Below, one piece after another: positions 340 through 46,532 of a stretch of 64,000 nt of DNA. Both the position numbers and the translations under genes were made by a program. The stretch spans positions 1-64,000 of the forward strand of contig JASMDC010000020.1 in NCBI GenBank assembly GCA_030753015.1, in the 5' to 3' direction. The notes beneath the pieces are model-generated. The model worked only from the letters and a program-made list of their open reading frames with translations, made no database searches and had not been told where the DNA came from. Each line of letters begins with the position of its first letter. Positions within the stretch are counted from its first letter, which is position 1. This DNA is from Candidatus Undinarchaeales archaeon. GTDB lineage: Archaea; SpSt-1190; JASMDC01.

Positions 340-1635
340 GTGGCTCGGGCAACTTTCAGAGTGACGGTGCGGTCCCGCGGCAACCTGAACCTCGAATTCG
401 TGGTCAGCCTCCTTCTCTTCGCCATGATATTCAGCATCACCATCATGCAGTACACTCAATCGGTGAACCGCTTTCTGGCCTTCTCCTACGAGGAGAGTCT
501 TCGGGTCGCTGCACAGCAGCTTATATGGCAGCTCACGAACGATGCCGGCTGCGACGAGGCTTGCGACTGTATCGCCGATAAGAACTGCGATCACTGGGGG
601 AAGAATAATTACCTCCGCATCGGATTCGCCGACGCCGATGAACCGGTCCTGAGCGTACAGAAGTTGCACGAGTTCTCCGGCCTGTACGACGAGGCCATCA
701 AGTCGGTACGCAACTACACAAAGATGGTCCGCGCCATGAACATGCCTAACAAGACCTTCCACATGCGCATAGAGCGCGTACCCACCCTATCGATCAATGC
801 CATCGCAGGCTCTCCCCAGGACGGTTACCTCCATTGCTACTCCTACATGCCCATTTGCGCGAACATCAACAAGACGCGGTCCAACATAACTGCCATCTTC
901 TACGTCAACCGGAGCGATGTCGATCTCAACTGTATACCCTTCGTTCTAAAGGAAGGTCGATCCGTGGTCCAGCTGGAGCCGAAGCGAGAAACCCGCAGGC
1001 TCTGCGAGGTGGAGTACACCTTTGAGGATTACGATGCACCGGGGACCTACACTGTTCTAGCGTTGCTTAACTCGACCGAGTCCATGGGCTATCGGGCTAT
1101 CGACGTGAACGTCATCGGGGATGAGCCTGCCCGCACGTCCGCGCTGTACCCGCCTCTCGTCAACTGCTCGATCTATCCCATACGAGGGAACACTTGCAGC
1201 ATCAATCTCGAGCTCACCGCTCCCTCTGATTTACGGGGCATCCGCATCAAGCCCCGGGTGCACACGGTCACGCGACCGGAGGGGGATCCAGAGACGAGTG
1301 CGGTCAACAGGTACCAGGCTGACATCGAGCTCACTCCCGACCACTTCGCCTACCTCCGCAAGGGGGATATGGCCGTCTTTTCGACCACCTTCTTCATGAA
1401 CGAACCGGGTATCTACCAAGGCAACTTCACGATCATCGCTCGGGACGAGGAGGGTAACCAGATCACACCGTACGTGGCACCGTTCCAGGTGAGCGTAGAG
1501 GGGTCGTTCCTCATCATCGAACGCGGCGTCCCGCCACCCAGGCGAACGGCGTCGGCCAGTGTCGAACGCTACATCACGATTAAATATCCATCCGGGGAGA
1601 AGGCTATTGCGCGAATGACACTGGTCGTTTGGTGA
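340..1635 (+). CDS. Pilin-like exported protein with class III (type IV pilin-like) signal peptide
   Basis: N-terminus RSRG|NLNLEFVVSLLLFAMIFSITI (basic residue-Gly, Glu at +5, hydrophobic stretch); beta-rich Ig-like middle; C-terminal ...RMTLVVW. Likely start is GTG 361, ~25 nt after TATAAG at 333-338. Confidence 0.7.
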   Translation: MARATFRVTVRSRGNLNLEFVVSLLLFAMIFSITIMQYTQSVNRFLAFSYEESLRVAAQQLIWQLTNDAGCDEACDCIADKNCDHWGKNNYLRIGFADADEPVLSVQKLHEFSGLYDEAIKSVRNYTKMVRAMNMPNKTFHMRIERVPTLSINAIAGSPQDGYLHCYSYMPICANINKTRSNITAIFYVNRSDVDLNCIPFVLKEGRSVVQLEPKRETRRLCEVEYTFEDYDAPGTYTVLALLNSTESMGYRAIDVNVIGDEPARTSALYPPLVNCSIYPIRGNTCSINLELTAPSDLRGIRIKPRVHTVTRPEGDPETSAVNRYQADIELTPDHFAYLRKGDMAVFSTTFFMNEPGIYQGNFTIIARDEEGNQITPYVAPFQVSVEGSFLIIERGVPPPRRTASASVERYITIKYPSGEKAIARMTLVVW

Positions 1636-1668: not shown

Positions 1669-2670
1669 ATGGCATCGAAGCGTGCCGGCTCGAAAAGAAC
1701 GAAGCGCAAGGACCGCTCCTCATCGGTTCTGAAGAAGAAGAAGACGTCAAAGGTACCTGAAAGCTCACCAGAAAAAGAAACGGATCGGTCCACCGTCGAC
1801 ACAGGGCTCGTTCCAGCGGACCGGCGGGACGCAGTCGAGCTCTTGCTCGTCCTCCTTCTCCTCGTCTACGTCTTCACGCAGATGGCGACCTCGTTCATCG
1901 CTCCAAGCCCACCTATGCTGCAGGTGCTGGCGGTCTCGGTCGTGCTCGGTGCCGGTGTGTGCATCGTCATCCGCAAGGAAGATGTCGTCGGCCACTACCT
2001 GCTCACATTCATCCTCCTCTTCTTCATCTTCACTGAGATCCCTGGACTCAACTCCCTGTTCGCAACGGGTTTTGTGACCCTCTTGGTGTTCGTCTGGACG
2101 GAGTTCATCGATCCAGAGGAGCACATCAGCGAAACTAGCATGTGCCTTGTGTATGCCATCGTGCTCGCCAAGGCCATCCTTTTCGTGCTCCACGCCACGC
2201 TCGCCACGAGCACACCTATCGTGGCAGTCGTATCGAACAGCATGAAGCATGATAATACCAACGAGGAGTATGCCGCATGGGTGAAGGAGAACGGTTTCCC
2301 CATCTCCAACGGATTCACGGGTGGTGATGTGCTCCTCGTCGTGGGTACCAAAGCAGAGGGCATCCGCGTGGGGGACGTCATCGTGTACTATCACAGCCGC
2401 GTCCCGATGCCCATCGTGCACCGGGCCGTGGGCGTCGCCTGCACCAACAAGGACGAGAGCCCCTGCACGAAGGTGCGGGCCCTCGCCACTCGCGGGGACC
2501 ATAATGCGGGACCTGACCGGTGGGCGGTGACCCCCGACATGCTTGAGGGGAGAGCTGTGTTACGCATCCCCAAGCTCGGGCTTATAAAAGCAGCACCAGT
2601 ATGCCTGCTCAAGTCCAGTTGCAGTGTCATTGCCTGCATAATGGAGGGCGAGTGTAAAGGAAGGTTGTGA
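1669..2670 (+). CDS. sec11: Signal peptidase I, archaeal Sec11/S26B type, with extra N-terminal TM helices
   Basis: Catalytic Ser in VAVVSNSM, GDVIVY, PIVHRAV (His), TRGDHN..D; Lys-rich N-tail and several TM segments. Confidence 0.85.
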   Translation: MASKRAGSKRTKRKDRSSSVLKKKKTSKVPESSPEKETDRSTVDTGLVPADRRDAVELLLVLLLLVYVFTQMATSFIAPSPPMLQVLAVSVVLGAGVCIVIRKEDVVGHYLLTFILLFFIFTEIPGLNSLFATGFVTLLVFVWTEFIDPEEHISETSMCLVYAIVLAKAILFVLHATLATSTPIVAVVSNSMKHDNTNEEYAAWVKENGFPISNGFTGGDVLLVVGTKAEGIRVGDVIVYYHSRVPMPIVHRAVGVACTNKDESPCTKVRALATRGDHNAGPDRWAVTPDMLEGRAVLRIPKLGLIKAAPVCLLKSSCSVIACIMEGECKGRL

Positions 2671-4019: not shown

Positions 4020-4759
4020 CGGACATCGTATGCGACGCTTCGAGCATCATCTCTCTCGCCACAAATTGCTTATTGTGGCTCCTCCCCTCGCTCCGCGAGC
4101 GGATGGGAGGGAACTTCATCATCCCGCCGTCAGTACGCCGTGAGCTCATCGACAAGCCCCTCAAGTCCACGCGATACCGGTTCGAGGCCATCCGCGTGGT
4201 GAGGGCCCTGGAGCAGGGAGACATAGTCATCCCAGAAGATCCCGAGCTGAAGACACGCGTGGCCGTGGACGCCGAGCAGCTGCTCTCCTGGGGAAACTCA
4301 ATCTTCGCAATCGGCAGGCCCCGAAAGGGAAGGAGCGGGCGGTATGCCAAGATCTTCCACCTCGGCGAGGCTGAGGCCGTGGCCATGACACGCCACATGG
4401 ATACCAACGTGCTTCTCATCGACGAGAAGACCACAAGGTTCCTCATCGAGGACCCGCTGGAGCTGGAGCGTATCATCGAACGGCGGACAAAGGCGAAGGT
4501 GTTCGTCAACGAACACTCCCTTCAGCAGTTCTTGGACTTTACCAAGAACGTCCAGATCATCCGGTCGGCCGAGGTGGCACTGGCCGCTTATGAGGCAGGA
4601 CTGTTCCGCGCCTTCCGCTCCGACGGGATCGACCAGGAACGGAATATCGTGTCCGGTGTGCTCCACGCCATCCGCAACTCCGGGTGTGCCATTGGTAGCA
4701 GTGAGATCGACGACTATGTGTCGCTCGAGTTCGGAGAGGTGCGTGCTGATGAGGAGTAG
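4016..4759 (+). CDS. PIN-domain protein (putative ribonuclease)
   Basis: IVCDASSII, PPSVRREL, HLGEAEAVA and LLIDE supply the four acidic PIN positions. Confidence 0.85.
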   Translation: MTDIVCDASSIISLATNCLLWLLPSLRERMGGNFIIPPSVRRELIDKPLKSTRYRFEAIRVVRALEQGDIVIPEDPELKTRVAVDAEQLLSWGNSIFAIGRPRKGRSGRYAKIFHLGEAEAVAMTRHMDTNVLLIDEKTTRFLIEDPLELERIIERRTKAKVFVNEHSLQQFLDFTKNVQIIRSAEVALAAYEAGLFRAFRSDGIDQERNIVSGVLHAIRNSGCAIGSSEIDDYVSLEFGEVRADEE

Positions 4760-7700
4760 GTGCTCCCTGATCCACGACGAGCGTGGATTCGTGCACTCAG
4801 TGGAAGCCGTACTGGCAATCATGCTCCTTCTCTTCTATACATCGCGGATGCTGGACACGCCGCTGCGTGTGCAAGAGGATAAGAAGCGGGCGCAGCTCGA
4901 CGAACTGAGGGAACAGATCGTCGGTGTGCTCGCAGGATTGGACAGGCGTGGTCTACTGGGTGATATGGTGTTCAGCGCTGATTATGCAAGCCTTGACACG
5001 ACTCTCCAGGGGATTTTCCCTGAACGTGAGAGCTTCACAGCGTCCGTCACCTACATGGTGCCCATGACCGTCACGGAGACATCAGGCCTGCCACGTCGGC
5101 GTGATCCGGTCGAGGTATCGGTGGACGTCCCGTTGGCCACGGATATCCGATCGTTCGTGCTCAGGGACGAGGCGGGGAAGGTTCTAGCACCTCTCCAGAC
5201 CAGCCGACCCTGGATGCGCATCCCTCTAACCCTCACCTGGCATCATCTCTGGCACCGGGACGTGAGCCTTCCCATCTCCCAGTGCACCGCTGACCAGACC
5301 GACTTCTACGATGACATCGCAAAGGGCCTCAACTGCCGCGATCCCATGGTGGAGCTCCCGCCCGCCGACATCAACGACGACGGGTTCCTGGACTACCCGG
5401 ACCGCAACTCGTTAGCGCTCTATATGGAGGACTGGTTCGATACACGCTGGTCCTTCCGTATCAAGCTCCGCTCCCGTGGGAAGGATGCAAGCAAGGTGAG
5501 CGATAACGCCCGCATCACCATCAAACTCCATGAGCTCATCGACCATGCGGGGATGACCTGCAAGAAGGGCATCGACCTGAACTCGTTCATCGTCACGGAC
5601 CGATTGGGCGATCCCGTGGACCACTCCGTGTCCATATCTGGTGGCTGCACGTGCGACACATGCACGATCATCGTTGACTGGAAACTGGGCACGGCCGTGG
5701 ACCATGAGACCTTACTCACCCACTGGCTCTACTTCAACACGCTCGACGCCGAGTTCCCTGCCGCGGACTGTCCGAGCTTCACAGCGCACTTCCAGAAGGC
5801 CGACTCAGGCTCGGGCAAGTGCATCATTGAGGACTGGACGACCAATCCGCCCAACAACGGGGACGAGGACCTCACGCCACGTAAGAGCGTCGGGGCCATT
5901 ACGGTCAACGGAAAGGTGGAGACCACCCATTCACAGATCCAGTTGCCACGTGACGCCGATTACGTAGAGATACCGTTCACCCTGGCCGCATGGCGTGACG
6001 CCGAGACGTACATGGAGTCGAGGGCACGCACCGGCATCTCGATCATCAGGTTCCAGCCCGTGCGCCTTGAGCGGGCATGGCGGTTCAGGTGGCATATCCG
6101 CGCGGAGCGCGTGAACCGGTCGGTCGAGTTCCGCGGGTTCGTCTCCGGTGCACCAGGCACATGCCGCGGCTACAAGTGCATTACACTGGAGCCCATCGGC
6201 GGTGGTGACCGCCCCGATCAGAGCAAGTTGGACGACACCTACTACTTCAACAAGGACATCTACGAGGTCGCGGAGGGGAGTTTCTACATCTGCACGTCCA
6301 CCATGGTGGGCGATGAGGTCCACGAGATCAATGACATCTACGACCTCTTCGAACTGAACGTGACGATCCGCGACGAGGTCGTCGATTCCGCCGATCGCGT
6401 GTGGCGCAACGCGATGCCCAATGCGTTCATCACAATCTACAAACCCCAGAGCCGGGATGACGAAGGCGGACCGCGGTGCGCTTCGGACAACTCTGCGAGC
6501 TCGACATGGGACAGCCCGCTCTTCAATGATGACGCGTCATCCCTCATCTCATTGGAGTCAGGGCTCACCCTCGACCAGATGACAACCCTGGGCATCGTCC
6601 GGGGGGACTCGTCCTCATCCTCCACCTCGGCCGGTGTCACGACAGAGGCTATCGACTCGGTAAAGACGGGCATTGCTATCGCGCCCTACCCCTCGTCCTA
6701 TGCCAGCATTCTTCCAAAGATACCGTTCATCAGTTCTGCCGGTAACTACCGGCTCCGCCGGAAGTTCTATCTCTACTACGCTATGAACTCGGTGACCTTG
6801 CCCAAGGATGCGGTCGCCACCGGTACTGTGGTGGATCCCTCCTGGTACACTCTTGACACATCCGCGCCGGAGCATGCTCCCCGTGTACAGGTCACCTGGC
6901 GGGACAATTTCCGACCCCGACAGGTCAAGGAGTTCTATCTCTCCTATTCAGTGGGCACCGATGAGTCCGATCAGGGATACGAAACCGACCTTGAGGTCAC
7001 CGTGGACAAGCAGTGCTACGATTGCCTTTCGCTCCGCTGCTTAACCTATGAGGACTGCAAGGACTACACCGACGGGGACGGTGACAACATCATCGACGAG
7101 GACTTCCTCACTACGGTCACCGCTCTGAACAACACCCCTATCGACATCCACCTGGGCCCCTGTAGTACCGAGACACCCTCCGAGGATTGCGATGTCCTAT
7201 GGGTCGCCCACGAGAACATGAACATCACACGTCACGTATTCTCCAACGCCGGGGATCGTACTGCGGTCGTCGATGAGACTGGACCCGTGTTCACATCGGT
7301 GCGCATGACGACGAACAGCTCATCGATGAAATCACGTGACATCATCAGGATCTACCATGACACACCCTATATCCTTTACTCGAAGTACTTCATCCCGCTC
7401 AAGGACGGCGACCTCCCCTCCATCGCTGGCTCCATCGCCATCCCAATCTATAACTTCACTGCCTTGAAGGCGAACGACTCTCCCGTGTTCGACGTGGACG
7501 AAGTGGACTTCTCGACCCATAACAAATGGTTCGCTAACTGGGGTTATCCGTGCGGGAACATCGGGGTATGCACAGTCACCTACGCGATCCTCTCCGAGAA
7601 CGCCAAGAAGGCGACCTTCTCTCAGGACCGCTGGCACGACGAGTTCACGGACACTTCAGGGATTACGATCGCCGCTGCCGGCACTACCAACAATCTTGCC

Positions 7701-8381
7701 GCCACCGACGGCGTCATGGGCCTCACCGCCGATGCCTCGGAGAGCACGGGCGAGGATGTGCTCCTGATGTTCGACCTGTCGCACCAGTTCTCAACCGCAG
7801 GATCGCAGCTCATTATCAGGACCAAGCGTGCCTACACCGCTTACGGTGGCCGCTCGAGTCTCCAGTTGGGGATGCTGCCCGACGGCACCGGCCGATACAC
7901 TGTGGCCCGGTGGGGCGACACCGATATCTCCGAATGGACCACTCTGACCTACGACCTGGAAGAATTGTGGGGAGAGAAGCCGTTCAAGCACGTGTTCCTC
8001 ACCATCGAGGACCAGGACACCGTGTCGACGGGTACTCGCTCGCTGTACGTCGACTCCATCCGTGTGGAGGGTAGCGGTGGCACGAACATCACGATCGTAC
8101 CTACCTCCGATTCTCCCAAGGCGTTCGAGGCGTACCCGTTCCTCGGTAGCGTTCGGGTGTTCAAGGAGGATTTCAGGGAGAGTGATGACTTCTTCCGCCG
8201 ACGTGCTGCACCGTTCATCGTGGAGATGGAGCGACCGGTGACAATGGACGGTGGGACACCCTTCCCGTCCCGCGACAACAATCCATCCACAACGACAGCA
8301 ACTGCCACCTATGCAGTGACCTCCAACAACCGCAGGATCGGATTCGCCTGGGTCAAGCTGGCGGTATGGTCGTACATGTGA
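4749..8381 (+). CDS. Giant pilin-like surface protein 1 (class III signal peptide, DUF2341-like repeats, Ca-binding-like loops)
   Basis: Start ATG 4749 after GGAGAGGT. DERG|FVHSVEAVLAIMLLLFY; DINDDGFLDYPD; WFDTRWSFRIK; FYLYY/FYLSY; DGDGDNIIDE; C-terminal WVKLAVW. Paralog of the next gene. Confidence 0.8.
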   Translation: MRSRCSLIHDERGFVHSVEAVLAIMLLLFYTSRMLDTPLRVQEDKKRAQLDELREQIVGVLAGLDRRGLLGDMVFSADYASLDTTLQGIFPERESFTASVTYMVPMTVTETSGLPRRRDPVEVSVDVPLATDIRSFVLRDEAGKVLAPLQTSRPWMRIPLTLTWHHLWHRDVSLPISQCTADQTDFYDDIAKGLNCRDPMVELPPADINDDGFLDYPDRNSLALYMEDWFDTRWSFRIKLRSRGKDASKVSDNARITIKLHELIDHAGMTCKKGIDLNSFIVTDRLGDPVDHSVSISGGCTCDTCTIIVDWKLGTAVDHETLLTHWLYFNTLDAEFPAADCPSFTAHFQKADSGSGKCIIEDWTTNPPNNGDEDLTPRKSVGAITVNGKVETTHSQIQLPRDADYVEIPFTLAAWRDAETYMESRARTGISIIRFQPVRLERAWRFRWHIRAERVNRSVEFRGFVSGAPGTCRGYKCITLEPIGGGDRPDQSKLDDTYYFNKDIYEVAEGSFYICTSTMVGDEVHEINDIYDLFELNVTIRDEVVDSADRVWRNAMPNAFITIYKPQSRDDEGGPRCASDNSASSTWDSPLFNDDASSLISLESGLTLDQMTTLGIVRGDSSSSSTSAGVTTEAIDSVKTGIAIAPYPSSYASILPKIPFISSAGNYRLRRKFYLYYAMNSVTLPKDAVATGTVVDPSWYTLDTSAPEHAPRVQVTWRDNFRPRQVKEFYLSYSVGTDESDQGYETDLEVTVDKQCYDCLSLRCLTYEDCKDYTDGDGDNIIDEDFLTTVTALNNTPIDIHLGPCSTETPSEDCDVLWVAHENMNITRHVFSNAGDRTAVVDETGPVFTSVRMTTNSSSMKSRDIIRIYHDTPYILYSKYFIPLKDGDLPSIAGSIAIPIYNFTALKANDSPVFDVDEVDFSTHNKWFANWGYPCGNIGVCTVTYAILSENAKKATFSQDRWHDEFTDTSGITIAAAGTTNNLAATDGVMGLTADASESTGEDVLLMFDLSHQFSTAGSQLIIRTKRAYTAYGGRSSLQLGMLPDGTGRYTVARWGDTDISEWTTLTYDLEELWGEKPFKHVFLTIEDQDTVSTGTRSLYVDSIRVEGSGGTNITIVPTSDSPKAFEAYPFLGSVRVFKEDFRESDDFFRRRAAPFIVEMERPVTMDGGTPFPSRDNNPSTTTATATYAVTSNNRRIGFAWVKLAVWSYM

Positions 8382-11300
8382 CGGTGAAACACGTGGGAAG
8401 GACGTTGACCAGGCAGGGGCGCGGACGACTTGGACGTGGACTGGTCGAGGACGAGAGCGGGTTCATACACGCTGTCGAGGCGGTCCTGTCCATCTTCCTG
8501 CTGATGTTCTACTCCCAGTCGATCCTCCGCACCCCGGTGTTCATCCGAGTCATCCAGGAGGAGGAGGCGACACGTGAGCTGTCCGACCAGATCATGGGCA
8601 TCCTCTCGAGCCTCGACTCGAAGAACTTCCTCGGAGAGGCGGTGTTCGCAGCGGACTTCAACCTCCTGGACAAGACCCTTGAGAACATCCTGCCGGAGCA
8701 TGCTGGATTCTCCTACTCGATCAGCTATATGCAGCCATTCACGTTGGTGGAGCCGACCGAACGGTATGCCTGGACGAACTGGCCCGTCACGGTGTCCCTG
8801 GACCTCCCCAAGGCCACGGACACTGGCTCGATCAACCTGAGGAGCGGGAACGGCGACATAATCCTCCCCCTACAGGTGTCTTGGCCATGGTTCCGGTACC
8901 GCATCGACTTCGGACACAAGCTGACCTCGGCATGGCCCAACTTCACCCTACCCTTGCGGATGTGCGACCTGTACCACGATCCGCGCGATCTCTACAACAT
9001 CACGGAGGAGGACCGGGAGTACATAGTCAACTGCCTACCCGTGTCCGGTCCCGCCGACCTAGTCGAGCTGGAGCCTGCCGACGTCAATGGCGACAACCTC
9101 CTTGACTATCCCGATCCCGGTTCAGTACATCTCTACATGGACGACTGGTACGACGACAGGTGGGATTATCGTCTCCGCGTCTCTACCAAGGCCATCGGCC
9201 CGGCCAACGAGGCCAATGCGTCCATAGCCGTGGGGCTCGCTGACCTCATGGATGCCCAGGGCATTCCCTGTCGCCACGGCCTGGACATGAACAGCACACT
9301 CATCGCCGATCCCTATGGGACGCCCATGAACTACACAGCCGAGTCGCACTGCTGCGGCGACGGTGTATGCAGCTCAACGGAGAACTCGATATCCTGCCAT
9401 CTCGACTGCCCGGGGACGTGCGGTGACGGGCTGTGCGGTGTGGGGGAGAGCAACGCCAACTGCGATCAGGACTGCCTCGATACCTGCGGTAACAACGATT
9501 GTGAGGATGGAGAGGACTCACTCTCCTGTCCCTTCGACTGCCCTCGTCTCTACAAGTCATCATGCGATTGCACAATGTTCCTGAACTGGACCTTCCCGGG
9601 CCCGGTCTCTTACGGCGATAAGCGCACCTTCTTCCTGTACTTCAACACCTTCGATGTCGAGGAACCCGTGAACCGGTGCCGCCCCGACATGAATCCCGTA
9701 AAGGTAGTCTACCGCAACTGCAAGGCGGGCTACACCGATGTCCAAGGCGACTTCGTGTGCACAAACGGCCGCTGTTCCATCAGCGACTGCAGGGTGTACC
9801 CCCGGCTCAAGTGGTCCTACCCCGAGTTCGGTCCGCTTGAAGAAGGGCACTCCTGCCCCCGAAAGGACCTCATCCCCAGCGATCCCAACCTCGTGAGCAC
9901 CTACGGGCCAGTGGAGGTCATCAGCGACCGGGACTATGTGGAGATGCCCATGGAGGTGGTCGACTGGCGTGATGGTCGTGTGTACGAGGACGATGTCGTC
10001 TACTACGGTCTTACCCTCCAACGGCGCCGTGTGCGGGAGGTCAACCACTCAGGCATCCCCTCGTGGAACATGCAGGTTCGCGTGGTAGCGTACAAGGCCA
10101 ACCACACAGTGGAACTGGCCGGTGATGTGACCGGCATCGCCCCCGGGAGCTGCGTGGCCGAAGCAGGTGGCATCAACGATTGCGTCACGGTGGTCCGCGA
10201 GGTCGATGAAGAGGAACAGCTCGGGATGAACACCGAGTCAGTGGAACCCGATTACACCGACCTCCCCTCGCTCACCGAGCCCGTGAAGGCGGAATCCGGC
10301 TCCAAGCACTTCTACGTCTGCACGACGACCGTTGACCTCAACTTCCCCCGCATCTATCCTTCCACCAGGGATGATATGGACATATTCACCATCAACATCA
10401 CCGTCCCCAAGAAGGTGTTCGATGAGCGGACAGGGGTCATCAGGCGTAACTTCCCCAAGAACATCCGGTTACAGTTCTCCATCATGGAGACCCACGACAC
10501 TTCAGCGGTGTTCCCCCGTTGCATGACCAAGTACGAGGACAAGACAGACCTCGAGCTCGCTGCCGACCGCATGGTCGTGCTCCCGACGGGCGAGTCGCTG
10601 GAACTGGCACGCAGCTGGTCCCCCATGAGCAGGCCCTTCATCGCGCCCTATCCCTCGTCCTACGCACGTATCAACTTCCATCTCCCGTTCATCGAGGCAC
10701 CGGGCCCCGCGAACCAGTACCCTGGTGAGGTCCACCGCGATCTTTTCCTGTACTATTCCATGGGGACCGACAAGGACCCACCCGAACCCCCGTCAGCGCC
10801 CACATGCCTTGAGGAAAAGCTCTATTGTGTACGCGGGGACGTGTTCTTCGTCCGGGAGGCTGTGAACAAAGCGCCACGGGCCGACATCTCCTGGATGGAG
10901 AGCTTCCAACCCGCGGAGCACAAACGATTCTATGCCTTCTATCGCGTGGGTACAAACGAGGCACCGGTCACCGGCGAATCCGACCTTGCGCTGGGCAAGA
11001 AGCAAGTGTGCACGGACTGCTTCGCCGATACATGCCCCGATCGCACGTGCACCAACCGTCGCGACGACAACAACAACGGTATCCTCGACGAGACCGAGGT
11101 GCGCTCGGTGTCCAACGTCTCGAGCGATGCCGGATTCTGGTCCTTCACCTACAGCCCGGGCGTGAGCTGCGGAGTCCAGGCCTCCACGGGGCTCGGTGCA
11201 GTGTGCATGCTCAACTCATTCATCTCGAAACGTGCGCTAACGGGGACGGACCTGATGGAAGGGGGTCGGCCGTCTTTCACGATGGAGGTCCCCGGACTTG

Positions 11301-12043
11301 TGGAGGCGGCCATCCCTGCCACCCATAAATCGGCCACTGTCATGGTCGAGGGTCCCGTCCGGAACGTCGTACAGACGATCGCACAGCACGAACTGGGGAC
11401 TGTCATTAACCTATACACGTTCTATCCCTCCTCGACCCTATGGCGGATGAGCAAGACCATCATACCTTCCAATCTCATCAAGGCACCTACGGGAAAAAAC
11501 GTGGGGAACATCACCTTTGCATTCACCGGGGACTGGACCAACGTCACTTACTTCCCGGACAGCATGGACAAGGTCTTCGAGCGGAGGATCGAAGGGGGCC
11601 AGATCGTCGAGTTCGATGTCAGCGAGGACTGGATCACATATTGGAACGCGACCTGCGGGAAGTGGGGCTCCTGCGGGTTCACCGTGGCGCTTTCGGACAA
11701 GGACATGGTCTCTCGGGCCTCAGTGATGCCGGACGCATCGCTCAAACCCAGCATCACCCTTGACATAAAGCGTGAACAGCTCACCCCCTTCAACGCTACG
11801 ACCATCCGCACACTCATGGACTTCAGGGTCGATCCTGCTGAGACGGGCTCCCGGCTCGCTTCCCTCCAGAACAATCCCTTCCGGGTAGAATACGATCGAT
11901 TGATACCGCTCCATGGGGGCGAGGCGGTCCCAGAGAAGACCGTTCCTCCCCACATCTCAACGGGGACAGCAGCCTACGTGGTCACGACCAACGGCCGTAA
12001 AGTCGGGTACTCTTGGCTGCGGTTCCATCTCTGGTATGCCTGA
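8378..12043 (+). CDS. Giant pilin-like surface protein 2, paralog of the previous gene, with CGDG Cys repeats
   Basis: GTGA overlap at 8378-8381. DESG|FIHAVEAVLSIFLLMFY; DVNGDNLLDYPD; WYDDRWDYRLR; APYPSSYA shared with paralog 1; C-terminal WLRFHLW. Confidence 0.8.
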   Translation: MTVKHVGRTLTRQGRGRLGRGLVEDESGFIHAVEAVLSIFLLMFYSQSILRTPVFIRVIQEEEATRELSDQIMGILSSLDSKNFLGEAVFAADFNLLDKTLENILPEHAGFSYSISYMQPFTLVEPTERYAWTNWPVTVSLDLPKATDTGSINLRSGNGDIILPLQVSWPWFRYRIDFGHKLTSAWPNFTLPLRMCDLYHDPRDLYNITEEDREYIVNCLPVSGPADLVELEPADVNGDNLLDYPDPGSVHLYMDDWYDDRWDYRLRVSTKAIGPANEANASIAVGLADLMDAQGIPCRHGLDMNSTLIADPYGTPMNYTAESHCCGDGVCSSTENSISCHLDCPGTCGDGLCGVGESNANCDQDCLDTCGNNDCEDGEDSLSCPFDCPRLYKSSCDCTMFLNWTFPGPVSYGDKRTFFLYFNTFDVEEPVNRCRPDMNPVKVVYRNCKAGYTDVQGDFVCTNGRCSISDCRVYPRLKWSYPEFGPLEEGHSCPRKDLIPSDPNLVSTYGPVEVISDRDYVEMPMEVVDWRDGRVYEDDVVYYGLTLQRRRVREVNHSGIPSWNMQVRVVAYKANHTVELAGDVTGIAPGSCVAEAGGINDCVTVVREVDEEEQLGMNTESVEPDYTDLPSLTEPVKAESGSKHFYVCTTTVDLNFPRIYPSTRDDMDIFTINITVPKKVFDERTGVIRRNFPKNIRLQFSIMETHDTSAVFPRCMTKYEDKTDLELAADRMVVLPTGESLELARSWSPMSRPFIAPYPSSYARINFHLPFIEAPGPANQYPGEVHRDLFLYYSMGTDKDPPEPPSAPTCLEEKLYCVRGDVFFVREAVNKAPRADISWMESFQPAEHKRFYAFYRVGTNEAPVTGESDLALGKKQVCTDCFADTCPDRTCTNRRDDNNNGILDETEVRSVSNVSSDAGFWSFTYSPGVSCGVQASTGLGAVCMLNSFISKRALTGTDLMEGGRPSFTMEVPGLVEAAIPATHKSATVMVEGPVRNVVQTIAQHELGTVINLYTFYPSSTLWRMSKTIIPSNLIKAPTGKNVGNITFAFTGDWTNVTYFPDSMDKVFERRIEGGQIVEFDVSEDWITYWNATCGKWGSCGFTVALSDKDMVSRASVMPDASLKPSITLDIKREQLTPFNATTIRTLMDFRVDPAETGSRLASLQNNPFRVEYDRLIPLHGGEAVPEKTVPPHISTGTAAYVVTTNGRKVGYSWLRFHLWYA
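9350..9541 (+). repeat. Three tandem ~22-aa CG(D/N)xxC...E....C..DC repeats (protein level)
   Basis: CGDGVCSSTENSISCHLDC / CGDGLCGVGESNANCDQDC / CGNNDCEDGEDSLSCPFDC. Confidence 0.85.
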
Positions 12044-12065: not shown

Positions 12066-13598
12066 TCAAGGAGGGATAGACTTCTGTGCGTTCACCGCAC
12101 AGCGGTCGCCATGCAGGTGCTCGCACCGGTAGCAGCTGCGTCGCTCCTTCCAGTAAAGGCAATAACCCTCCCGACGCTGGCGTTCCGCCTGGCGCAGGAG
12201 CAGCAGTGTACCCATGGTATGGTCCGACACGTCCACGTTGGCGTCCATGAGCACAGCGACCAGCCGTTCAGCGGCGTCGATGCGTGTTTGGGCACGCTCC
12301 TCCCACGGCGGGCCGTCTACCTCATCGAAGGCCACATCGGCATCGGCCCACACAGTATTCCGGTGGATGCGGGCGATCCCATATCGCTCAGGGTGCTGCG
12401 ACATCTCAGATACGCGAGGGATAGTGAGGAGATTGACGACCGCCGTATCGATAGCAGGGGCCAGCCTCCGGACGAGCGCATCGGTGGCAGCAAGGTCTTC
12501 TTCTCTCTCGTCAGGGAACCCCACCATGAGGTTCACCTCACACGCGATGCCTGCATCATGGGCATCCCTGATGATCCGTTCTGCTTCGTCGACGGCTATG
12601 CCCTTGTGGAACCATTCCAGCAGACGTTGGGAGCCCGATTCCAGGCCGAGGTTGAGCTTGATACAGCCTGCCGTACGCATACGTGAGAGGAGCTGACGGT
12701 CGAGGCCCGTCGGCCTCGCATATCCTGACCATCGAACCGATAAGGGCGACAATACATCGCACAGTCCCTCCATGTGACCGGGGGAAATGTTGAGGGTGTT
12801 GTCCGTGAACACGAACTCATCGGCATCGAACCGGTCCACGAGAACGGCCAGGTCTGCGGCCACCCGCTCAGGGGAGCGTACATCCAGAGCATGGCCTAGA
12901 TGATGGGCGCAGTAAGCGCACGAGGCGGGGCACCCGCGAGAGATACGATAGGGTAGCCGCGCCAACTTGTCCCGGTAGCGATCCTCGGGAAGCCCCGTGA
13001 AGTCCGGCGGAGGAAGCTTATCCAAGGGCACCTCATGGGGCGGCGCTGCGCGCACGTCATCCCCCACACGCTCGACCAGCCCAGGCACGTCTCCGGCACC
13101 GGTCGCCAATGCATGGAATGCCTCCTCGGTACCGGCGAGCACGACACCTCGCAGGAATGGGAAGGAGGAGGTGCACGTCTCTGCGAACAGAGCCGCTGCT
13201 GCACCTGCCAGCACCACTTCCGTCCCTTTTTCCGCCAAGGTCCGGGCGAGGGCGAGCGCGGGCATGAGCTGCTCTATCCCAGGAGCGAAAACACCGACAA
13301 GGTCAGCTGAGGAGAGGTCCAGTGGGGACAGTCCGACCATCCGGTCGGCGGTTATGTCCATGTACCTGATACGCACCTTCCCTTGAAGATGGGCTACCGT
13401 ACGGTCCGGATCGTCGAACACACCGGTCTTAACTCTTTTCGACTGTCGCTGCTCGGAGGCCGCGCGCACGGCGAGGTCGTCCAGCTCCACGTCCACGCTC
13501 TTGGCCCGGAGGTATCCGGCCACGGACGCGGGTTCCAGCGGTGGCTCGTACCGGGGCCGGGATGCCGTGGTGGGTGCATTGACCAGAGCGAGGACCAC
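12066..13598 (-). CDS. B12-binding-domain radical SAM protein
   Basis: ISRGCPASCAYC, FTDNTLN, GLESGSQ, LMVGFPDE; N-terminal LVNAP...PPLEPASVAGYL; C-terminal CYRC..C. Start reassigned to GTG 13598 because the track ORF overlaps the divergent gene. Confidence 0.9.
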   Translation of the reverse strand: MVLALVNAPTTASRPRYEPPLEPASVAGYLRAKSVDVELDDLAVRAASEQRQSKRVKTGVFDDPDRTVAHLQGKVRIRYMDITADRMVGLSPLDLSSADLVGVFAPGIEQLMPALALARTLAEKGTEVVLAGAAAALFAETCTSSFPFLRGVVLAGTEEAFHALATGAGDVPGLVERVGDDVRAAPPHEVPLDKLPPPDFTGLPEDRYRDKLARLPYRISRGCPASCAYCAHHLGHALDVRSPERVAADLAVLVDRFDADEFVFTDNTLNISPGHMEGLCDVLSPLSVRWSGYARPTGLDRQLLSRMRTAGCIKLNLGLESGSQRLLEWFHKGIAVDEAERIIRDAHDAGIACEVNLMVGFPDEREEDLAATDALVRRLAPAIDTAVVNLLTIPRVSEMSQHPERYGIARIHRNTVWADADVAFDEVDGPPWEERAQTRIDAAERLVAVLMDANVDVSDHTMGTLLLLRQAERQRREGYCLYWKERRSCYRCEHLHGDRCAVNAQKSIPP

Positions 13599-13621
13599 GG
13601 GACCGACGCTCCTGACAAAGC

Positions 13622-13627
13622 TTATAA
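13622..13627. promoter_or_regulatory. Palindromic TATA box (TTATAA), probably bidirectional
   Basis: Only AT-rich element between divergent starts 13598(-) and 13648/13657(+). Confidence 0.65.
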
Positions 13628-13656
13628 CATTTCCCGACCCCTCGCCGGTGAAGGCC

Positions 13657-15186
13657 ATGGTGACGGTGGGTGTGAGCCCCTGCGACGGGTACGGTCGGGA
13701 AGAGGTCGACAATGCCGTATCGACCGCCCTCGCCAAAGCCGGGGACCTTGCTTCGCTCATTCCTGCGGGAGGGACCGTGCTGGTCAAGCCCAATCTAATC
13801 GAGCCATACCCACCCTGGCGTGCTGCGACGACCCATCCGTCGGTCGTGGAAGCGATTGTCCGTCTGGCAGCGGACACCGGGTGCAGGGTGCTCGTGGGAG
13901 ACTGTGCAGGAGGTAGCGATCCGAAGATGACCGAGCGCGCTCTGGAGATCTCGGGAGTGGCCGAGGCGGCCCGGCGTGCGGGGGGTGAGGTCGTGAACCT
14001 CCAACGAGGTCCGCGTCGAAGGATTAACCTCCCTGAAGCCCATCCCGCGGCCGTGGACGTCGCCGTACCTGTGCTCGACGCCGACCTGATTATTAACCTT
14101 CCCAAGCTCAAGACCCATTCCCTCACTCTCCTCACGGGCGCCGTGAAGAACCTCTACGGCTGCCTCCCCGGACAGGGAAAGTCCGAGGGCCACCGTGCCA
14201 ATCCTCGCAGGGAGGACTTCTCCCAGATGCTCGCCGCGCTCTATGGCGAACTGCGGCCCAGGCTCTCGGTCATGGACGCCGTGGTGGCCATGGAGGGGGA
14301 AGGACCATGTGCGGGCCTGCCTCGGCATGTCGGCCTCGTGCTCGCTGCCACCGATGCGGTCGCACTCGACGCGGTCTCTGCCCACCTCATAGGATATGCT
14401 CCGGGGGCCATCCCTTCCACCCGGATCGCCGCGGCAAGGGGACTGGGCGAGAGCACCCTCGACCGGATCGAGATCGTAGGGCCCGAGCTGGAGCGCTTCA
14501 GGGTACCCGATTTCCGCAAGCCTGTAGCCATGCACGCGGACGGACAGAACGTAATCCCAGAGCTCGAACCGGAGCGATGCACCAGCTGTGGTACGTGTGC
14601 TGCTAACTGCCCCGTCCAGGCCATAACCATGGACCCTCTGCCCGTGTACGACAGGGAGCGATGCATCCACTGCCTCTGCTGCCAGGAGCTGTGCCCCCAA
14701 GGAGCCGTTGCGGCCCGTCCCACCAAGGGCCGTCCACCTCCGAGCCTTGACACTGAGGGGCCCGCGTGGGAGGAGGAGGGAAGACGCGTTCAGCTGTTCC
14801 CCGTGGTCGACCTGGAGGTGCCTCACGGGAGACCGGTGCTCCTTTCCCCCATGATAGGGGCGCTAAAGATGGCCGGGCTCTGCGATGCTATACTGGCTGC
14901 GGATCCGCCTCTTGTGGTCATCGCCCATAGAGTGGATCCAGACATCGCCAATCCGGGTGACGCACGCCCTCTGCTCGACTGCATTCTGGCCATGCGTGAG
15001 CGCGGTATCAACCTCGTGGTAGCCCGGCCGCTCCCTCCCTGCCTGCTTGCCAGGGAGGATGTAGAACTAGCCCGCACATTGGGCGTGCCCTCGGCAGTCG
15101 GTCGCCCTCGTAACGTAGACGCCCTGCCACCCCGATGTCAGAGATGTGTTTACCTGGTGCGGGGACGATGTCAGGGTGCGTGGTGA
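13657..15186 (+). CDS. DUF362-domain protein with a 2x[4Fe-4S] ferredoxin and a Cys-rich C-terminal extension
   Basis: VLVKPNL, TTHP, INLPKLKTH, TGAVKNLYG, MEGEGP; CTSCGTCAANCP and CIHCLCCQELCP; tail CQRC.....C.G. Confidence 0.9.
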   Translation: MVTVGVSPCDGYGREEVDNAVSTALAKAGDLASLIPAGGTVLVKPNLIEPYPPWRAATTHPSVVEAIVRLAADTGCRVLVGDCAGGSDPKMTERALEISGVAEAARRAGGEVVNLQRGPRRRINLPEAHPAAVDVAVPVLDADLIINLPKLKTHSLTLLTGAVKNLYGCLPGQGKSEGHRANPRREDFSQMLAALYGELRPRLSVMDAVVAMEGEGPCAGLPRHVGLVLAATDAVALDAVSAHLIGYAPGAIPSTRIAAARGLGESTLDRIEIVGPELERFRVPDFRKPVAMHADGQNVIPELEPERCTSCGTCAANCPVQAITMDPLPVYDRERCIHCLCCQELCPQGAVAARPTKGRPPPSLDTEGPAWEEEGRRVQLFPVVDLEVPHGRPVLLSPMIGALKMAGLCDAILAADPPLVVIAHRVDPDIANPGDARPLLDCILAMRERGINLVVARPLPPCLLAREDVELARTLGVPSAVGRPRNVDALPPRCQRCVYLVRGRCQGAW

Positions 15187-27113: not shown

Positions 27114-28667
27114 CTAGGACCACGGTCCCAGCAGGACCATGATGCCTGAGACCATCCTCACACTGGCCCGGTAGAATACCTTGGCGGCCCGGCCCCTTCC
27201 GGTGGCGATGGGGGCGGACAGGTGATCGTACCCGTACATCACGAAGTACATGAAGCTCTCGTACGGCCCAAGACCGAGCCTCAGTCCGCGGTAAATGTAC
27301 CGCACCATCCGGGTGAAGAAAGCGGGCCCGTCCCGTCTGATGTGGGAGAGGACGGTCCTCGTACCGAAGAGTATCCGGGTCATCAGGGTAAAGGCCATGA
27401 TCTGGTTCCTCGTGATGTGCTCGTGCTCGAGGTGTATCCCTCTCAGATAGTCTGAGCTGACGTTCAGGCTCTCATCGTCGATAGTGGAGCCGTACTCTTC
27501 GGCCGTCTCGTAGGCGCGCGTCCCGGCCAGCGCCTTGTACAGGAAGAACACAGGGTGCTCGATGTCGTGCTCGATGGAGAACGTCAGCGATTCAAGGAGC
27601 CACTCGGGACGCTCCCCGGGCCCGCCCACGATGAAGTACCCCGTGGTGGATATCCCGGAGCCGGCCAGGAGCCTCATCCCCTCCTCGAGCGCGTCCTGGG
27701 GGAGGCGCTTGTCGTAGATATGGTTCCTCATGTGCTCGTTCGCCGACTCGATCCCGATCCTCAGGTGAATGCACCCACTGTCCCTCAGGGTATCCAGCAC
27801 CTCCCTGTTTATGTGGTCGGCCCGCGAGAATGCGCTCCACTTCAGGCGTTCGTTGAGACCCCTTCGCTTGTACTCCTCCACGAACCGCTTCACCCAGGCG
27901 TGGTCTATGAGGAAGTTGAGGTCATAGAAGAAGACGACCCTCATCCCGAGGGCGCCGTACCTCTCGTACTGTCGCTCGATCTCGTCTACGACGGTGACGG
28001 GATCCCTCAGCCGGAAGAACCGCTTTCCCCCGTACAGCCTCTGCACGTCCGGGATCGCGCAGTAGGCGCACGAGTAGGGGCATCCTCTGCTCGCCATGAC
28101 CGGCAGGATCCCAAAGAAGAACAAGTAGTTCCTGATGACCTCCTCGTCGTACACGCCCCAGTCGATGTCCGGTATCTCGTCTACGTCCAAAGGCTCGCCC
28201 ATCGGATTCCTTTCGATCCCGTCACCCTTCCTCCACCAGAGTCCCGGCACTTCCTCCAGCGGGCCGTCGGACTCCAAGGCGTCCAGGAGCAGGACCATGG
28301 CCTCCTCGCCCTCGCCAACGACGAGCATGTCGATGTTCCCGTGTGAGATGACATCCTCCGGGGCGAGCGTTGCGTGATGGCCGCCGGCCAGGACCGGCAT
28401 GTGGGTATCGATCCGCTTGACCTCGTCGACAATCTCCTTTACACTGGGGAAGTACGGATTGGATACATAGATCCCCACAATATCCGGCCCGAATCTCTCG
28501 ATGGCCTCCCTGAGACGGGCTCTCCACGCGTTGCGGCTGTACACGAAGTCCAGGACCTTCGCCTCATGCAAGCTGTGGATGTGGATGTACGACGCGAGGC
28601 AGGCTAGGCCGATGTGTAGCGGTTCGGGCTCGCCCGTGATCGTTGGGTTGATTAGCAGTATCCTCAT
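27114..28667 (-). CDS. B12-binding-domain radical SAM protein
   Basis: MRILLINP, IGLACLASY, GGHHAT..P, VGEGE, SRGCPYSCAYC, GIESAN, FIVGGPGE. Confidence 0.93.
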   Translation of the reverse strand: MRILLINPTITGEPEPLHIGLACLASYIHIHSLHEAKVLDFVYSRNAWRARLREAIERFGPDIVGIYVSNPYFPSVKEIVDEVKRIDTHMPVLAGGHHATLAPEDVISHGNIDMLVVGEGEEAMVLLLDALESDGPLEEVPGLWWRKGDGIERNPMGEPLDVDEIPDIDWGVYDEEVIRNYLFFFGILPVMASRGCPYSCAYCAIPDVQRLYGGKRFFRLRDPVTVVDEIERQYERYGALGMRVVFFYDLNFLIDHAWVKRFVEEYKRRGLNERLKWSAFSRADHINREVLDTLRDSGCIHLRIGIESANEHMRNHIYDKRLPQDALEEGMRLLAGSGISTTGYFIVGGPGERPEWLLESLTFSIEHDIEHPVFFLYKALAGTRAYETAEEYGSTIDDESLNVSSDYLRGIHLEHEHITRNQIMAFTLMTRILFGTRTVLSHIRRDGPAFFTRMVRYIYRGLRLGLGPYESFMYFVMYGYDHLSAPIATGRGRAAKVFYRASVRMVSGIMVLLGPWS

Positions 28668-28717: not shown

Positions 28718-30127
28718 TCAAAGGAACCGTCCCCTCACGAACTGCGCCCCACTGGACAGCATCGCGGGGCCCGGCACCATCGATGCCAGGCGCCACACCC
28801 TGCCCGGTCGCGAGTAGAACCGTCGGTATCCCCTCCTGCAGGCTCCCGACAGCGCCGCCGGGTCCATGCCGTTTGCGGTCCGGACGGGGGTGGAGTACTC
28901 GAGGGCAGCCCAATCGGCGTCCCTCCGCTTCTCCCCGAATAGCTGTAGCTCGAGCTCGGTCCCTGGATAGGGCAAGGCGGGATAGAACTCCGCGAAGTCC
29001 AGGGGGAGCTCGCTGGCGAACTCGATCGTCCTCTCGATGGTCGCCTCCGTCTCCCCGGGCAGGCCGAACACGAAGAAGCCCGTGGTCACGATGCCCCTGT
29101 CCCTGGCCTCCGTCACCGCCCGCTCGGCCTGCTCCGGTGAGGCGCCCTTGCGGGCCTTGCCAAGGATGGACGGATCGGACGACTCTATCCCAAAGGATAT
29201 CGCGAAGCAGCCTGCATCGGCCATGGCGTCCAGGAGCTCGGCATCCACCGAGTCAACCCTAGAGTTGCAGAGCCACTTGACATCGAGCCCTCTCTCCACC
29301 ATCCCCCTGCAGACCTGCAGCACCTGCTCCCGTGCCTGCGTCACGGTGTCCCCGAACAGGTACAGGAGCTCCGCGCCGTGGTGGGCGACATCATGCTCCA
29401 TCTCGTCGAGGATCCCTTCAGCCGACCTCTGCCTCAGCTTCCCACCGTACCATAGCCGGGACACGCAGAACGTGCAGCGGTGAGGGCACCCCCTTGATGT
29501 CTGGACCATCACGTACCTCTCCCCGGTCAGGGGCATGACGTACTTGTCAAGGGGGAGGTCGCCCCAGTCAGGGAACGGCAACGCGTCCAGCTCCATGACG
29601 GGCTCCCTCGGACCGCCATGGACAGGCTGCCCCGAGGGATCCCTCCACACCATCCCGCTCACTCCGGCGGGGCCCCCGGACGCGGCCGCGTCAAGGACTA
29701 CCTGCTCCGGCTCGCCCACCACCGCAGCGTCCAGCCAAGGGAACGAGCGGAGGGTCTCCGCCGGCAGGGCAGTGACGTGCGCCCCGATGGCGACGAGTAA
29801 GCTCCCGGGATGCCGTTCCTTTAGACCCCCCGCGTAGGACATGTCGGAGGCCAGCGTGGGCGTGGTGGTGTTGATGATAACGAGGGCGCCCCGGCCGGCC
29901 TCGTCGATGGCAGCCTCGAGCCGCCCCAGCCCGCCGCGGTCGGCCTCCAGATCGAACGCCGCGCACGGTACTCCGTTTGCCCGGAGGACCGACGAGACGT
30001 ACGCGAGGGTGAGTGGTGGATAGGCGCCCAGCTTCCCGCCGAGCCGTTCCTGGCACCTACCCTCCCGTGCGAAGACCTCCGTGCCCGGGGACGGGGGATT
30101 GACGAGGGCTACGAACGGGATCGGCAC
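28718..30127 (-). CDS. B12-binding-domain radical SAM protein (HpnJ-like N-terminus)
   Basis: LVNPP....REGRCQ..YPPLTLAY, GAHVT..P, SRGCPHRCTFC, FGIES, FVFGLPGET, PYPGT. Start GTG 30127, 25 nt from TTATAA. Confidence 0.92.
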   Translation of the reverse strand: MPIPFVALVNPPSPGTEVFAREGRCQERLGGKLGAYPPLTLAYVSSVLRANGVPCAAFDLEADRGGLGRLEAAIDEAGRGALVIINTTTPTLASDMSYAGGLKERHPGSLLVAIGAHVTALPAETLRSFPWLDAAVVGEPEQVVLDAAASGGPAGVSGMVWRDPSGQPVHGGPREPVMELDALPFPDWGDLPLDKYVMPLTGERYVMVQTSRGCPHRCTFCVSRLWYGGKLRQRSAEGILDEMEHDVAHHGAELLYLFGDTVTQAREQVLQVCRGMVERGLDVKWLCNSRVDSVDAELLDAMADAGCFAISFGIESSDPSILGKARKGASPEQAERAVTEARDRGIVTTGFFVFGLPGETEATIERTIEFASELPLDFAEFYPALPYPGTELELQLFGEKRRDADWAALEYSTPVRTANGMDPAALSGACRRGYRRFYSRPGRVWRLASMVPGPAMLSSGAQFVRGRFL

Positions 30128-30219
30128 GGTCCAGAACACCACTGGTAACAATTTATAACTTGTCCAGCGTGCCCTGTCGCAAGTGGGCCGCGCCACAGCG
30201 TAGGCCTGCGGAGAGGAAT

Positions 30220-41949: not shown

Positions 41950-42005
41950 ACCGGGGTCTGCTCGCGGGATATCCATTTTTATCATTCACATCTTTTGTGG
42001 TCCTT

Positions 42006-46531: not shown

Positions 46532-46532
46532 G

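Follow-up and report, generated by a model that had tools for sequence, protein, structure and literature searches.

Archaeal clade-1 (Epd) pilus loci combine one ATPase, two TadC genes and several class-III proteins with two large DUF2341 proteins that have been proposed to be tip adhesins (Makarova, Koonin and Albers 2016, PMC4858521), and a DUF2341 gene of the Methanococcus maripaludis epd locus has been hit in a transformation screen (PMC10133366). In bacterial systems, the last strand of GspK and of CpaL completes the N-terminal pilin-like sheet in cis, and the last ~10 residues of PilC/PilY1 and MshQ complete PilK in trans (PMC13533445). Almost nothing is known of the structure of archaeal pilus tips and adhesins. 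The subject of the present analysis is a pair of tandem genes, denoted P1 (4749-8381) and P2 (8366-12043), in a 64 000-nucleotide stretch of DNA from the uncultivated marine Candidatus Undinarchaeales archaeon (assembly GCA_030753015.1, contig JASMDC010000020.1, positions 1 to 64 000 of the forward strand; hereinafter, the window). In the two encoded proteins, a small beta-sandwich domain probably sits in a loop of another such domain, several levels deep.

Both genes are on the plus strand. The P1 open reading frame (ORF) encodes 1210 amino acids (aa), counted from the ATG at 4749, and P2, with 1225 aa, overlaps the 3' end of P1. Although the reading frame of P1 extends upstream to 4590, the gene before it ends at 4759 and an ortholog with 89% identity, P0003, also begins at the equivalent of 4749. 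BLASTP finds similarity between the two proteins in three stretches of P1, aa 8-293 (38% identity, E 8e-53), 301-795 (24%, E 1e-37) and 1155-1207 (38%, E 1e-10). A first-pass annotation of this DNA had described two ~1200-aa paralogs with the common block order A1-B1-C1-D-C2-B2-E-A2, where the first halves of domains B and C are followed, after the complete unit D, by the second halves in reverse order. The paralogy and the block order hold in the numbered translations of both proteins, and the motifs are located in P1 where that annotation had put them, with B1 at aa 105-150 (window 5061-5198), C1 at 154-228, D at 229-333, DYVEIP at aa 404 (5958), FYLYY at aa 673 (6765, compared with the ~6780 given earlier), B2 at 714-733 (6888-6947) and A2 at 1155-1207. 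Scans of P1 and P2 against Pfam and NCBIfam identified no families; at E<=10, there was no match at all for P1 and a single chance-level one for P2, and plain self-BLAST detected no internal repeats in either protein. Given this lack of library families and self-BLAST repeats, the pattern was tested through relatives.

There are few such relatives. A word-indexed search with P1 found two, P0003 and P0004 (80% identity), and an exhaustive search of 1.84 billion representative proteins recovered P0003 and, apart from it, just a 126-aa piece of a P2 ortholog. Both paralogs are present in the two genomes of the taxonomic family that were examined; in the 17 genomes of the phylum, which here equals the class, the full-length P1 is matched in three and its first 229 aa in four. 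The distant matches are, in one genome (G002), two consecutive ORFs of 230 and 888 aa and, in another (G003), an 826-aa protein, with the metagenome relatives P0007 (53%) and P0008 (36%). A search with an N-terminal profile retrieved five proteins, namely P0003, P0004, P0007, P0006 (the 826-aa ORF of G003) and P0010 (the 888-aa ORF of G002); the best score in an ESM Atlas search, 0.75, is a lead only. Compared with P1, P0004 contains ~190 extra residues after the position of aa ~618 (window ~6600), in the Ser-rich loop of a region denoted F, which suggests that this loop is a site where new modules get added. The extra stretch of P0004 includes two mutually similar internal segments.

The split of domain C is evident from comparison with the G003-type proteins, where the block order is A1-B1-C-B2, with a whole C. 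When the profiles of the G003-type group and of the P1/P2 group are compared, G003 aa 28-202 align with residues 1-214 of mature P1 (probability 96%, E 4e-9), a match that spans A1, B1 and C1 and ends at the third strand of C, and G003 aa 239-286 align with mature P1 661-707 (score 38.9, E 0.0014), a stretch that covers the last strand of C and continues into B2. These two matches are collinear and are separated by 37 aa in the relatives versus 447 aa in P1, that is, P1 has ~410 extra residues inside C. The score of the second match was reached by none of the 41 controls (the reversed template and 40 block shuffles), the best of which scored 29.2. The insertion points in C map to loops between strands of the homolog structure model described below, one after the strand 174-177 and the other in the hairpin 193-194. 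In P2, unit D itself is split by a Cys-rich insert, which is a further insertion level: a hidden Markov model (HMM) of the unit, built without P2, matches this D in two pieces, with positions 1-69 at aa 259-324 (E 1.4e-5) and positions 41-106 at aa 364-430 (E 5e-4), and the Cys-rich module lies between them.

The nested order also emerges from comparison with a unit profile that was built from eight uninterrupted units of the G002 and G003-type proteins only, with no P1 or P2 rows. When compared with the P1/P2 profile, positions 1-43 of the unit match P1 aa 224-263 at the start of D (score 26.3), positions 38-73 match aa 201-227 in C1 (24.3), 15-41 match aa 101-128 in B1 (23.3), 93-131 match aa 707-737 in B2 (21.3), 68-107 match aa 397-432 in the middle of C (18.9), and 99-128 match aa 652-678 at the end of C, the latter with a score (16.4) that is within the noise. 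Over 61 controls (the reversed template and 60 column shuffles), the maximum scores at ranks 1 to 5 were 24.2, 15.4, 14.6, 14.3 and 14.0, respectively, so that the first five matches exceed the controls, rank for rank. The N-terminal positions of the unit match the 'first halves' only and the C-terminal positions the 'second halves' only, in the nested order. Detection of B1 and B2 requires profile-profile comparison: in hmmsearch with the unit HMM, the B1 and B2 matches in P1 reach only E ~0.2, and unit D alone, compared with the rest of P1/P2 by hhalign, yields only E 0.1-0.36. The conservation between P1 and P2 fits nesting as well, with the pieces assigned to one domain sharing one conservation level (42% identity in both B1 and B2, and 42, 43 and 46%, respectively, in C1, the middle and the end of C; A1 and A2 are at 45 and 38%), compared with 25, 25 and 20% in the linker X and the regions F and E, respectively.

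Structure prediction for G003 aa 25-312 with AlphaFold2 (10-row alignment) resulted in a model with a mean predicted local distance difference test (pLDDT) value of 65.7 and a predicted template modeling score (pTM) of 0.56; pLDDT is 70-89 for residues 80-220 (B1 and C), ~80 for residues 240-278 (B2) and 40-50 for the A1 helices. Structural alignment of this model to the PDB with VIA-align gave two classes of matches, as read from the alignment ranges. Class I extends from model residue 128 to ~250, with 85-110 residues aligned, and covers C alone, which resembles sandwiches of the immunoglobulin, CBM3 and Gram-positive pilin kind (best match 2wyh_A, Z 6.8). Class II extends from ~78 to ~277 and yet aligns 60-76 residues (root mean square deviation 2.6-3.3 A) onto small single domains, such as 3h6j_A (Z 5.4, 67 residues) and 9hze_C (76 residues of the 95-residue chain). 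In this range, B1 and B2 comprise 49 and 35 residues, 84 altogether, and C comprises 95, so that the Class II matches point to B1 and B2 as one sandwich that skips C. Thus, in the model of this homolog, B1 and B2 appear to pack into a single compact sandwich around C. Because all Z values for the homolog model are below 8, the matches indicate compactness, not which fold is adopted, and a Foldseek search of the PDB with the homolog model returned nothing at E<=0.001. In the model of P1 itself, the one further part with some confidence is in region E (aa ~971-1113, pLDDT 50-73), and VIA-align relates it, at Z 8-9, to jelly-rolls of carbohydrate-binding modules and to an adhesin domain of a gingipain. 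A three-chain complex prediction for A1 plus B1, B2 and A2 of P1, with A2 as partner, gave interaction scores from predicted aligned errors (ipSAE) of 0.23, 0.45 and 0.09, against a mark of 0.32; these values, which come without controls, carry no weight in either direction, and one row of the B2 alignment (aa 186-225 of the 888-aa G002 protein) is the end of another unit.

The blocks of P1 can be followed along the chain. The protein starts with a charged, Gly-terminated leader (aa 1-13, 4749..4787), a putative class III (prepilin-type) signal, and A1 (aa 14-96, 4788..5036), which consists of the hydrophobic N-terminal helix and a helical region; the A1 helices are predicted with low confidence, and the block is part of the E 4e-9 match to the G003-type proteins. 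B1 (aa 97-153, 5037..5207) would provide the first four strands of sandwich B, counterparts of the strands at 74-126 in the homolog model (pLDDT 70-80), after which B would be interrupted by sandwich C. C1 (aa 154-228, 5208..5432), where the first collinear match closes, would contribute the first three strands of C together with an Asp/Asn/Gly-rich loop; such loops in C1 of both paralogs resemble calcium-binding loops. C appears to be interrupted twice, after the third strand by D and after the fourth by F; judging from the strand order, D and F would enter C via successive hairpin loops, which in an up-and-down sandwich would be at opposite ends. Unit D of P1 (aa 229-335, 5433..5753) is complete and uninterrupted, with positions 1-106 of the unit HMM covering aa 227-333 in hmmsearch (this D was in the seed) and a pLDDT of 50-69 in the full-length model. 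The linker X (aa 336-396, 5754..5936) leads to the fourth strand of C (C-middle, aa 397-417, 5937..5999), and the insert F (aa 418-645, 6000..6683; ~228 aa), with its Ser-rich loop, is not present in G003-type proteins. The chain would return via the last two strands of C (C-end, aa 646-682, 6684..6794), where the second collinear match begins, and then via the returning strands of B (B2, aa 707-737, 6867..6959), which align with G003 B2. From there, it continues into the divergent region E (aa 738-1154, 6960..8210; 417 aa in P1 versus 307 aa in P2), a Cys- and Asp-rich linker with beta-rich domains, one of which, at aa ~971-1113, is possibly a jelly-roll of the carbohydrate-binding type, and ends in A2 (aa 1155-1210, 8211..8378), with conserved C-terminal strands and a Trp at the end. 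A2 aligns with the C-termini of the 826-aa G003 and the 888-aa G002 proteins, with an invariant Pro and Trp.

P2 (8366..12043) has the same block order, with the leader at aa 1-32, A1 at 33-116, B1 at 117-173, C1 at 174-260, D at 261-430, C-middle at ~516-536, C-end at ~765-802, B2 at ~833-863, E at 864-1170 and A2 at 1171-1225. The Cys-rich module in its unit D (aa ~325-395, 9338-9550), found in P2 only, shows a repeated Cys-Gly-Asp-Gly-x-Cys-like spacing. This module and the extra stretch in F of P0004 would be further lineage-specific inserts. The claim that each domain is inserted in a loop of the previous one holds up for C in B, on the homolog model, for D and more in C, on the collinear profiles, and for the Cys-rich module in D of P2. 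C2 is not the single half-domain it had been taken for, as it consists of two short pieces (aa ~397-417 and ~646-682) with the insert F between them.

The annotation had called the units DUF2341-like. PF10102, the Pfam model of DUF2341 (gathering cut-off 23.4 bits), has no match in either P1 or P2 at E<=10, and a six-frame search of the genome that contains the window with this model finds only two contigs, C45 and C117. The DUF2341 domain on C45 (71.7 bits to PF10102) matches the unit profile with a probability of 71% and E 3.6e-5, over the N-terminal 36 columns only; its alignment with unit D of P1/P2 extends over 104 columns (E 0.0016), and that with B1 has E 0.034. On these profile comparisons, the label is fair for a remote likeness, not for membership. 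On C117, two pieces of a single 855-aa open frame (803-877 and 1658-1777; L024, L025) match PF10102 in swapped order, with model positions 41-65 upstream of 1-41; this frame could be another interrupted or permuted DUF2341 unit.

A class III signal consists of a short charged leader that ends in Gly or Ala and is followed by a hydrophobic helix of ~20 residues. Read from the translations, P1, P2 and their homologs follow this pattern, with a charged leader containing Gly and then a hydrophobic helix, and the Gly-then-helix signature is common to P1, P2, the G002 and G003 homologs and a pilin-like gene on another contig of the same genome (C63) that adjoins an ATPase and two T2SSF genes. Several pilin-like genes, a T2SSE ATPase and two T2SSF (TadC-like) genes precede the homologs in G002; those in G003 are preceded, as far as the contig end, by two T2SSF genes and two others, one of these pilin-like. 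A Peptidase_A24 gene is located ~9 kb from the locus in G001, and other contigs of the genome that contains the window encode five T2SSE-type ATPases and four Peptidase_A24 matches. The arrangement of the ATPase, two TadC and pilin-like genes near the relatives is the Epd layout of Makarova et al., and this is why P1 and P2 are read here as candidate tip or minor pilin-like adhesins, which, by this analogy, would be used in trans by a Tad/Epd-like pilus. All seven large proteins read in these loci (the product of window 340-1635, P1, P2, the 826-aa protein of G003 and G003_216, and the 888-aa protein of G002 and G002_588) have a Trp at or within three residues of the C-terminus, in a hydrophobic strand, and some of them have Sec-type rather than pilin-type N-termini. 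The gene at window 340-1635 (+) encodes a 431-aa protein with a pilin-like hydrophobic N-terminus and an A2-like, Trp-ended strand, with no Pfam match and no BLAST similarity to P1; downstream, at 1669-2670 (+), is a membrane protein gene with an archaeal signal-peptidase-I domain (TIGR02228, 58 bits), and both genes are syntenic in G001.

The explanation that best accommodates these observations, to which a probability of about 0.55 can be assigned, is that P1 and P2 are paralogous secreted pilin-like proteins with recursively nested sandwich units that serve as tip or minor adhesins of a Tad/Epd-like pilus. Under this scenario, both proteins would be cut by a prepilin peptidase and become part of the tip, or minor subunits, of a type IV pilus of the Tad/Epd-like kind, the genes of which are elsewhere in the genome; the doubly tethered nested domains would form a stiff projection that presents, for adhesion, the variable modules (E, F, X and the inserts), and A2 would return to the base, like the C-terminal strand of GspK/CpaL. 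Several results weigh against this explanation. No pilin or DUF2341 model of Pfam or NCBIfam matches P1 or P2 at E 10, and Pfam and NCBIfam scans detect no pilus machinery genes in the window. The AlphaFold2 model of mature P1 (7-row alignment) has a mean pLDDT of 33.8 and a pTM of 0.28 and is unusable for contacts, and the family, with few metagenome proteins, is too small to provide covariation evidence. The profile matches of B1 and B2 are individually weak (E 0.03-0.07), the structural support for packing of B1 with B2 comes only from alignment ranges of a ~28%-identical homolog, and the structural Z values are at the stated noise level of the tool, both in the homolog model (below 8) and in region E (8-9). 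Furthermore, the adhesion role is pure inference, and the most variable block, E, follows B2 and is thus outside the nest. This position weakens the tip picture, and the two-stranded stalk with a variable tip that the first-pass annotation had envisaged finds no support here.

The alternatives differ in which part of this explanation they give up. Dispensing with nesting altogether, the motifs could be strand-end motifs of tandem sandwiches arranged like beads on a string, with the apparent halves being degenerate whole domains. The self-BLAST result, the weakness of the single B1 and B2 profile matches and the uninformative model of P1 itself are all compatible with such an arrangement, and so is the ambiguity of the motifs, with MAFFT aligning B2, when given alone, to the end of C. 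Under a beads-on-a-string architecture, however, the N-terminal part of the unit profile would not be expected to match at B1, C1 and the start of D only, and the C-terminal part at C-middle, C-end and B2 only, in nested order; moreover, C is uninterrupted in G003-type proteins, in contrast to the ~410-residue insert in P1, B1 packs with B2 in the homolog model, and B1 (57 aa) and B2 (31 aa) are too short for whole sandwiches. This possibility is already disfavored and appears highly improbable. If the nesting is accepted and the pilus is not, the N-terminal helix would be an uncleaved anchor or an ordinary signal of a cell-surface or S-layer-associated protein, as might be expected from the lack of pilus genes in the window and of pilin HMM matches, from the Ser, instead of Lys or Arg, at position -2 of the putative cleavage site in P2, and from the signal-peptidase-I-like gene 2 kb upstream. 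Such a protein is unlikely in view of the homologs in two other families of the phylum, which directly follow T2SSE/T2SSF and pilin-like genes, and of the conservation of the Gly and hydrophobic-helix signature, including in the pilin-like gene beside the ATPase in the same genome.

The remaining alternative keeps the nested body and has the terminal strands act in trans, with A2 (and, in split forms, B2) donated to another subunit, such as a minor pilin or the paralog, so that these proteins would be adhesins docked by beta-strand addition, not self-closed pilins. The G002 homolog, which consists of two genes, speaks for this alternative. The 230-aa ORF (L010 10573-11265, minus strand) contains A1, B1 and the whole C and then stops, and the ATG of the 888-aa ORF (L010 7926-10592, minus strand) overlaps this stop, as in translationally coupled genes. 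The 888-aa protein has a Sec-like signal with a B2-like motif directly after it, so that the mature protein would begin with B2, and an A2-like strand at the end. The gene thus seems to be split exactly at the nest boundary, between C-end and B2, which is weak but suggestive evidence: a B2 HMM from six other sequences finds its sole match in this protein at aa 29-56, with 1.3 bits, a score reached anywhere in the protein by 5 of 500 shuffles. An uninterrupted unit at aa 116-214 of the same protein was considered as the ortholog of B and rejected, being a different unit, with B2 sitting at the N-terminus of the protein. Strand donation in trans also gains from the Trp-bearing hydrophobic strand that ends 7/7 large proteins, including those with Sec-type N-termini, and from the occurrence of both cis and trans strand addition in bacterial systems (PMC13533445). 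In P1 and P2 themselves, however, both halves are in one chain, so that closure in cis is simpler, and the B2 match in G002 is weak; on balance, donation in trans appears doubtful, if less so than a non-pilus role. About as doubtful, and more far-reaching, is the idea that the family corresponds, in archaea, to the 'licensing' tip subunit GspK/CpaL but follows a new building principle, with a helix-side sandwich completed by strands that come back, once the chain has passed recursively through mutually inserted like units, from up to ~1000 residues away; these strands in G002 would be supplied in trans by a Sec-secreted adhesin, with B2 at its start and A2 at its end, in a two-ended strand-complementation dock. 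If this were true, repeated insertion of one domain family into itself, to a depth of three or four levels, would give evolution a workable route for growing a stiff tip projection.

The window is archaeal; its genes include those for transcription factor S (TIGR01384, 87 bits), an archaeal-type signal peptidase I, aIF5A and 4-HFC-P synthase. Four radical SAM genes are located on the minus strand (12066-14135, 27114-28667, 28718-30295 and 33498-34850), three with a Pfam B12-binding match and one, 12066-14135, matching B12-binding radical SAM families in NCBIfam only; these are interspersed with glycosyltransferase, polysaccharide deacetylase, carbamoyltransferase and dolichyl-phosphate-mannose transferase-like genes. 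At 41946-51134 (+), three consecutive large ORFs (925, 604 and 1533 aa), with no Pfam family at E<=1e-5, follow a zinc-carboxypeptidase-like gene. Marine and seawater metagenomes from 11 studies contain near-identical DNA, and the assembly itself may derive from some of these studies. In addition, two contigs of one seawater metatranscriptome run match window 5057-5319, in P1, and 10127-10339, in P2, at >=99%, which, with DNA carry-over possible, is no proof of transcription.

If the nesting is real, these otherwise intractable 1200-aa orphan proteins can be expressed, and their structures solved, in pieces with exact domain boundaries, and they would represent a natural case of one domain family inserted recursively into itself; strand complementation between a minor pilin-like protein and an adhesin could then be tested on the split G002 genes. 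More generally, such a case would show that reading the block order in the raw sequence can recover discontinuous domains that are overlooked by HMM libraries.

The closest archaeal systems are the Epd loci. The DUF2341 proteins of these loci (arCOG03508 and others) also come as two large paralogs with DUF2341-type units and are proposed tip adhesins, and the relatives of P1 and P2 are similarly located near one secretion ATPase, two TadC-like genes and several proteins with class III signals (PMC4858521). The differences are that P1 and P2 have no PF10102 match, that this pair is away from the machinery genes, and that self-nesting of units is not mentioned in the passages of PMC4858521 consulted; the likeness to arCOG03508 is drawn from these shared features. 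A literature search on DUF2341 and on nested or inserted-domain archaeal type IV pilins and adhesins, outside of which were subscription-only papers and supplements, found no such archaeal nesting described. The statement of the first-pass annotation that no archaeal adhesin of this construction is known is compatible with this search, and has to be set beside the nested tip adhesins and the distant-strand pilin closure known in bacteria and the paired large DUF2341 proteins of archaea.

The tip minor pilins GspK/PilK and CpaL (TadG) share with P1 and P2 a pilin-like N-terminal part, a very large middle (~470 aa in CpaL) and a conserved beta-strand at the extreme C-terminus (PMC13533445), and the Tad system of CpaL is a bacterial relative of the archaeal two-TadC systems. 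In contrast to GspK and CpaL, the middle of P1 and P2 appears to be a nested stack of like units, not one domain, and no sequence similarity was detected between these proteins. PilC/PilY1 and MshQ are likewise large (~1000-1200 aa) pilus-associated proteins in which the last strand docks to the tip complex, but they have a beta-propeller body, dock in trans and lack a pilin-type N-terminus (PMC13533445). The Altiarchaeum hami were dropped as a comparator: the hamus protein has a Sec signal and an S-layer-like N-terminus (PMC4460559).

The most similar design is found in sortase pili. P1 and P2 have no LPXTG sorting signal at their C-termini, which end a few residues past the conserved Trp. 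Tip adhesins of sortase pili carry a C-terminal LPXTG sorting signal and a membrane anchor. In one of these, RrgA of Streptococcus pneumoniae, the domains are doubly nested, with D3 inserted in D2 and D2/D3 in D1, so that the chain runs out and back (PMC5333627), whereas the assembly is of the sortase/LPXTG/isopeptide type, the organism is a bacterium and the domains are of different folds. P1 and P2 nest homologous units, and do so at least two deep, as in RrgA, with B holding C and C holding D, a likeness of design and not of descent. No long-standing question is opened by these proteins, and the design principle has bacterial precedents; with nested tip adhesins already known in bacteria, what would be new here is a single domain family recursed into itself three to four deep, within a pilin-like protein.

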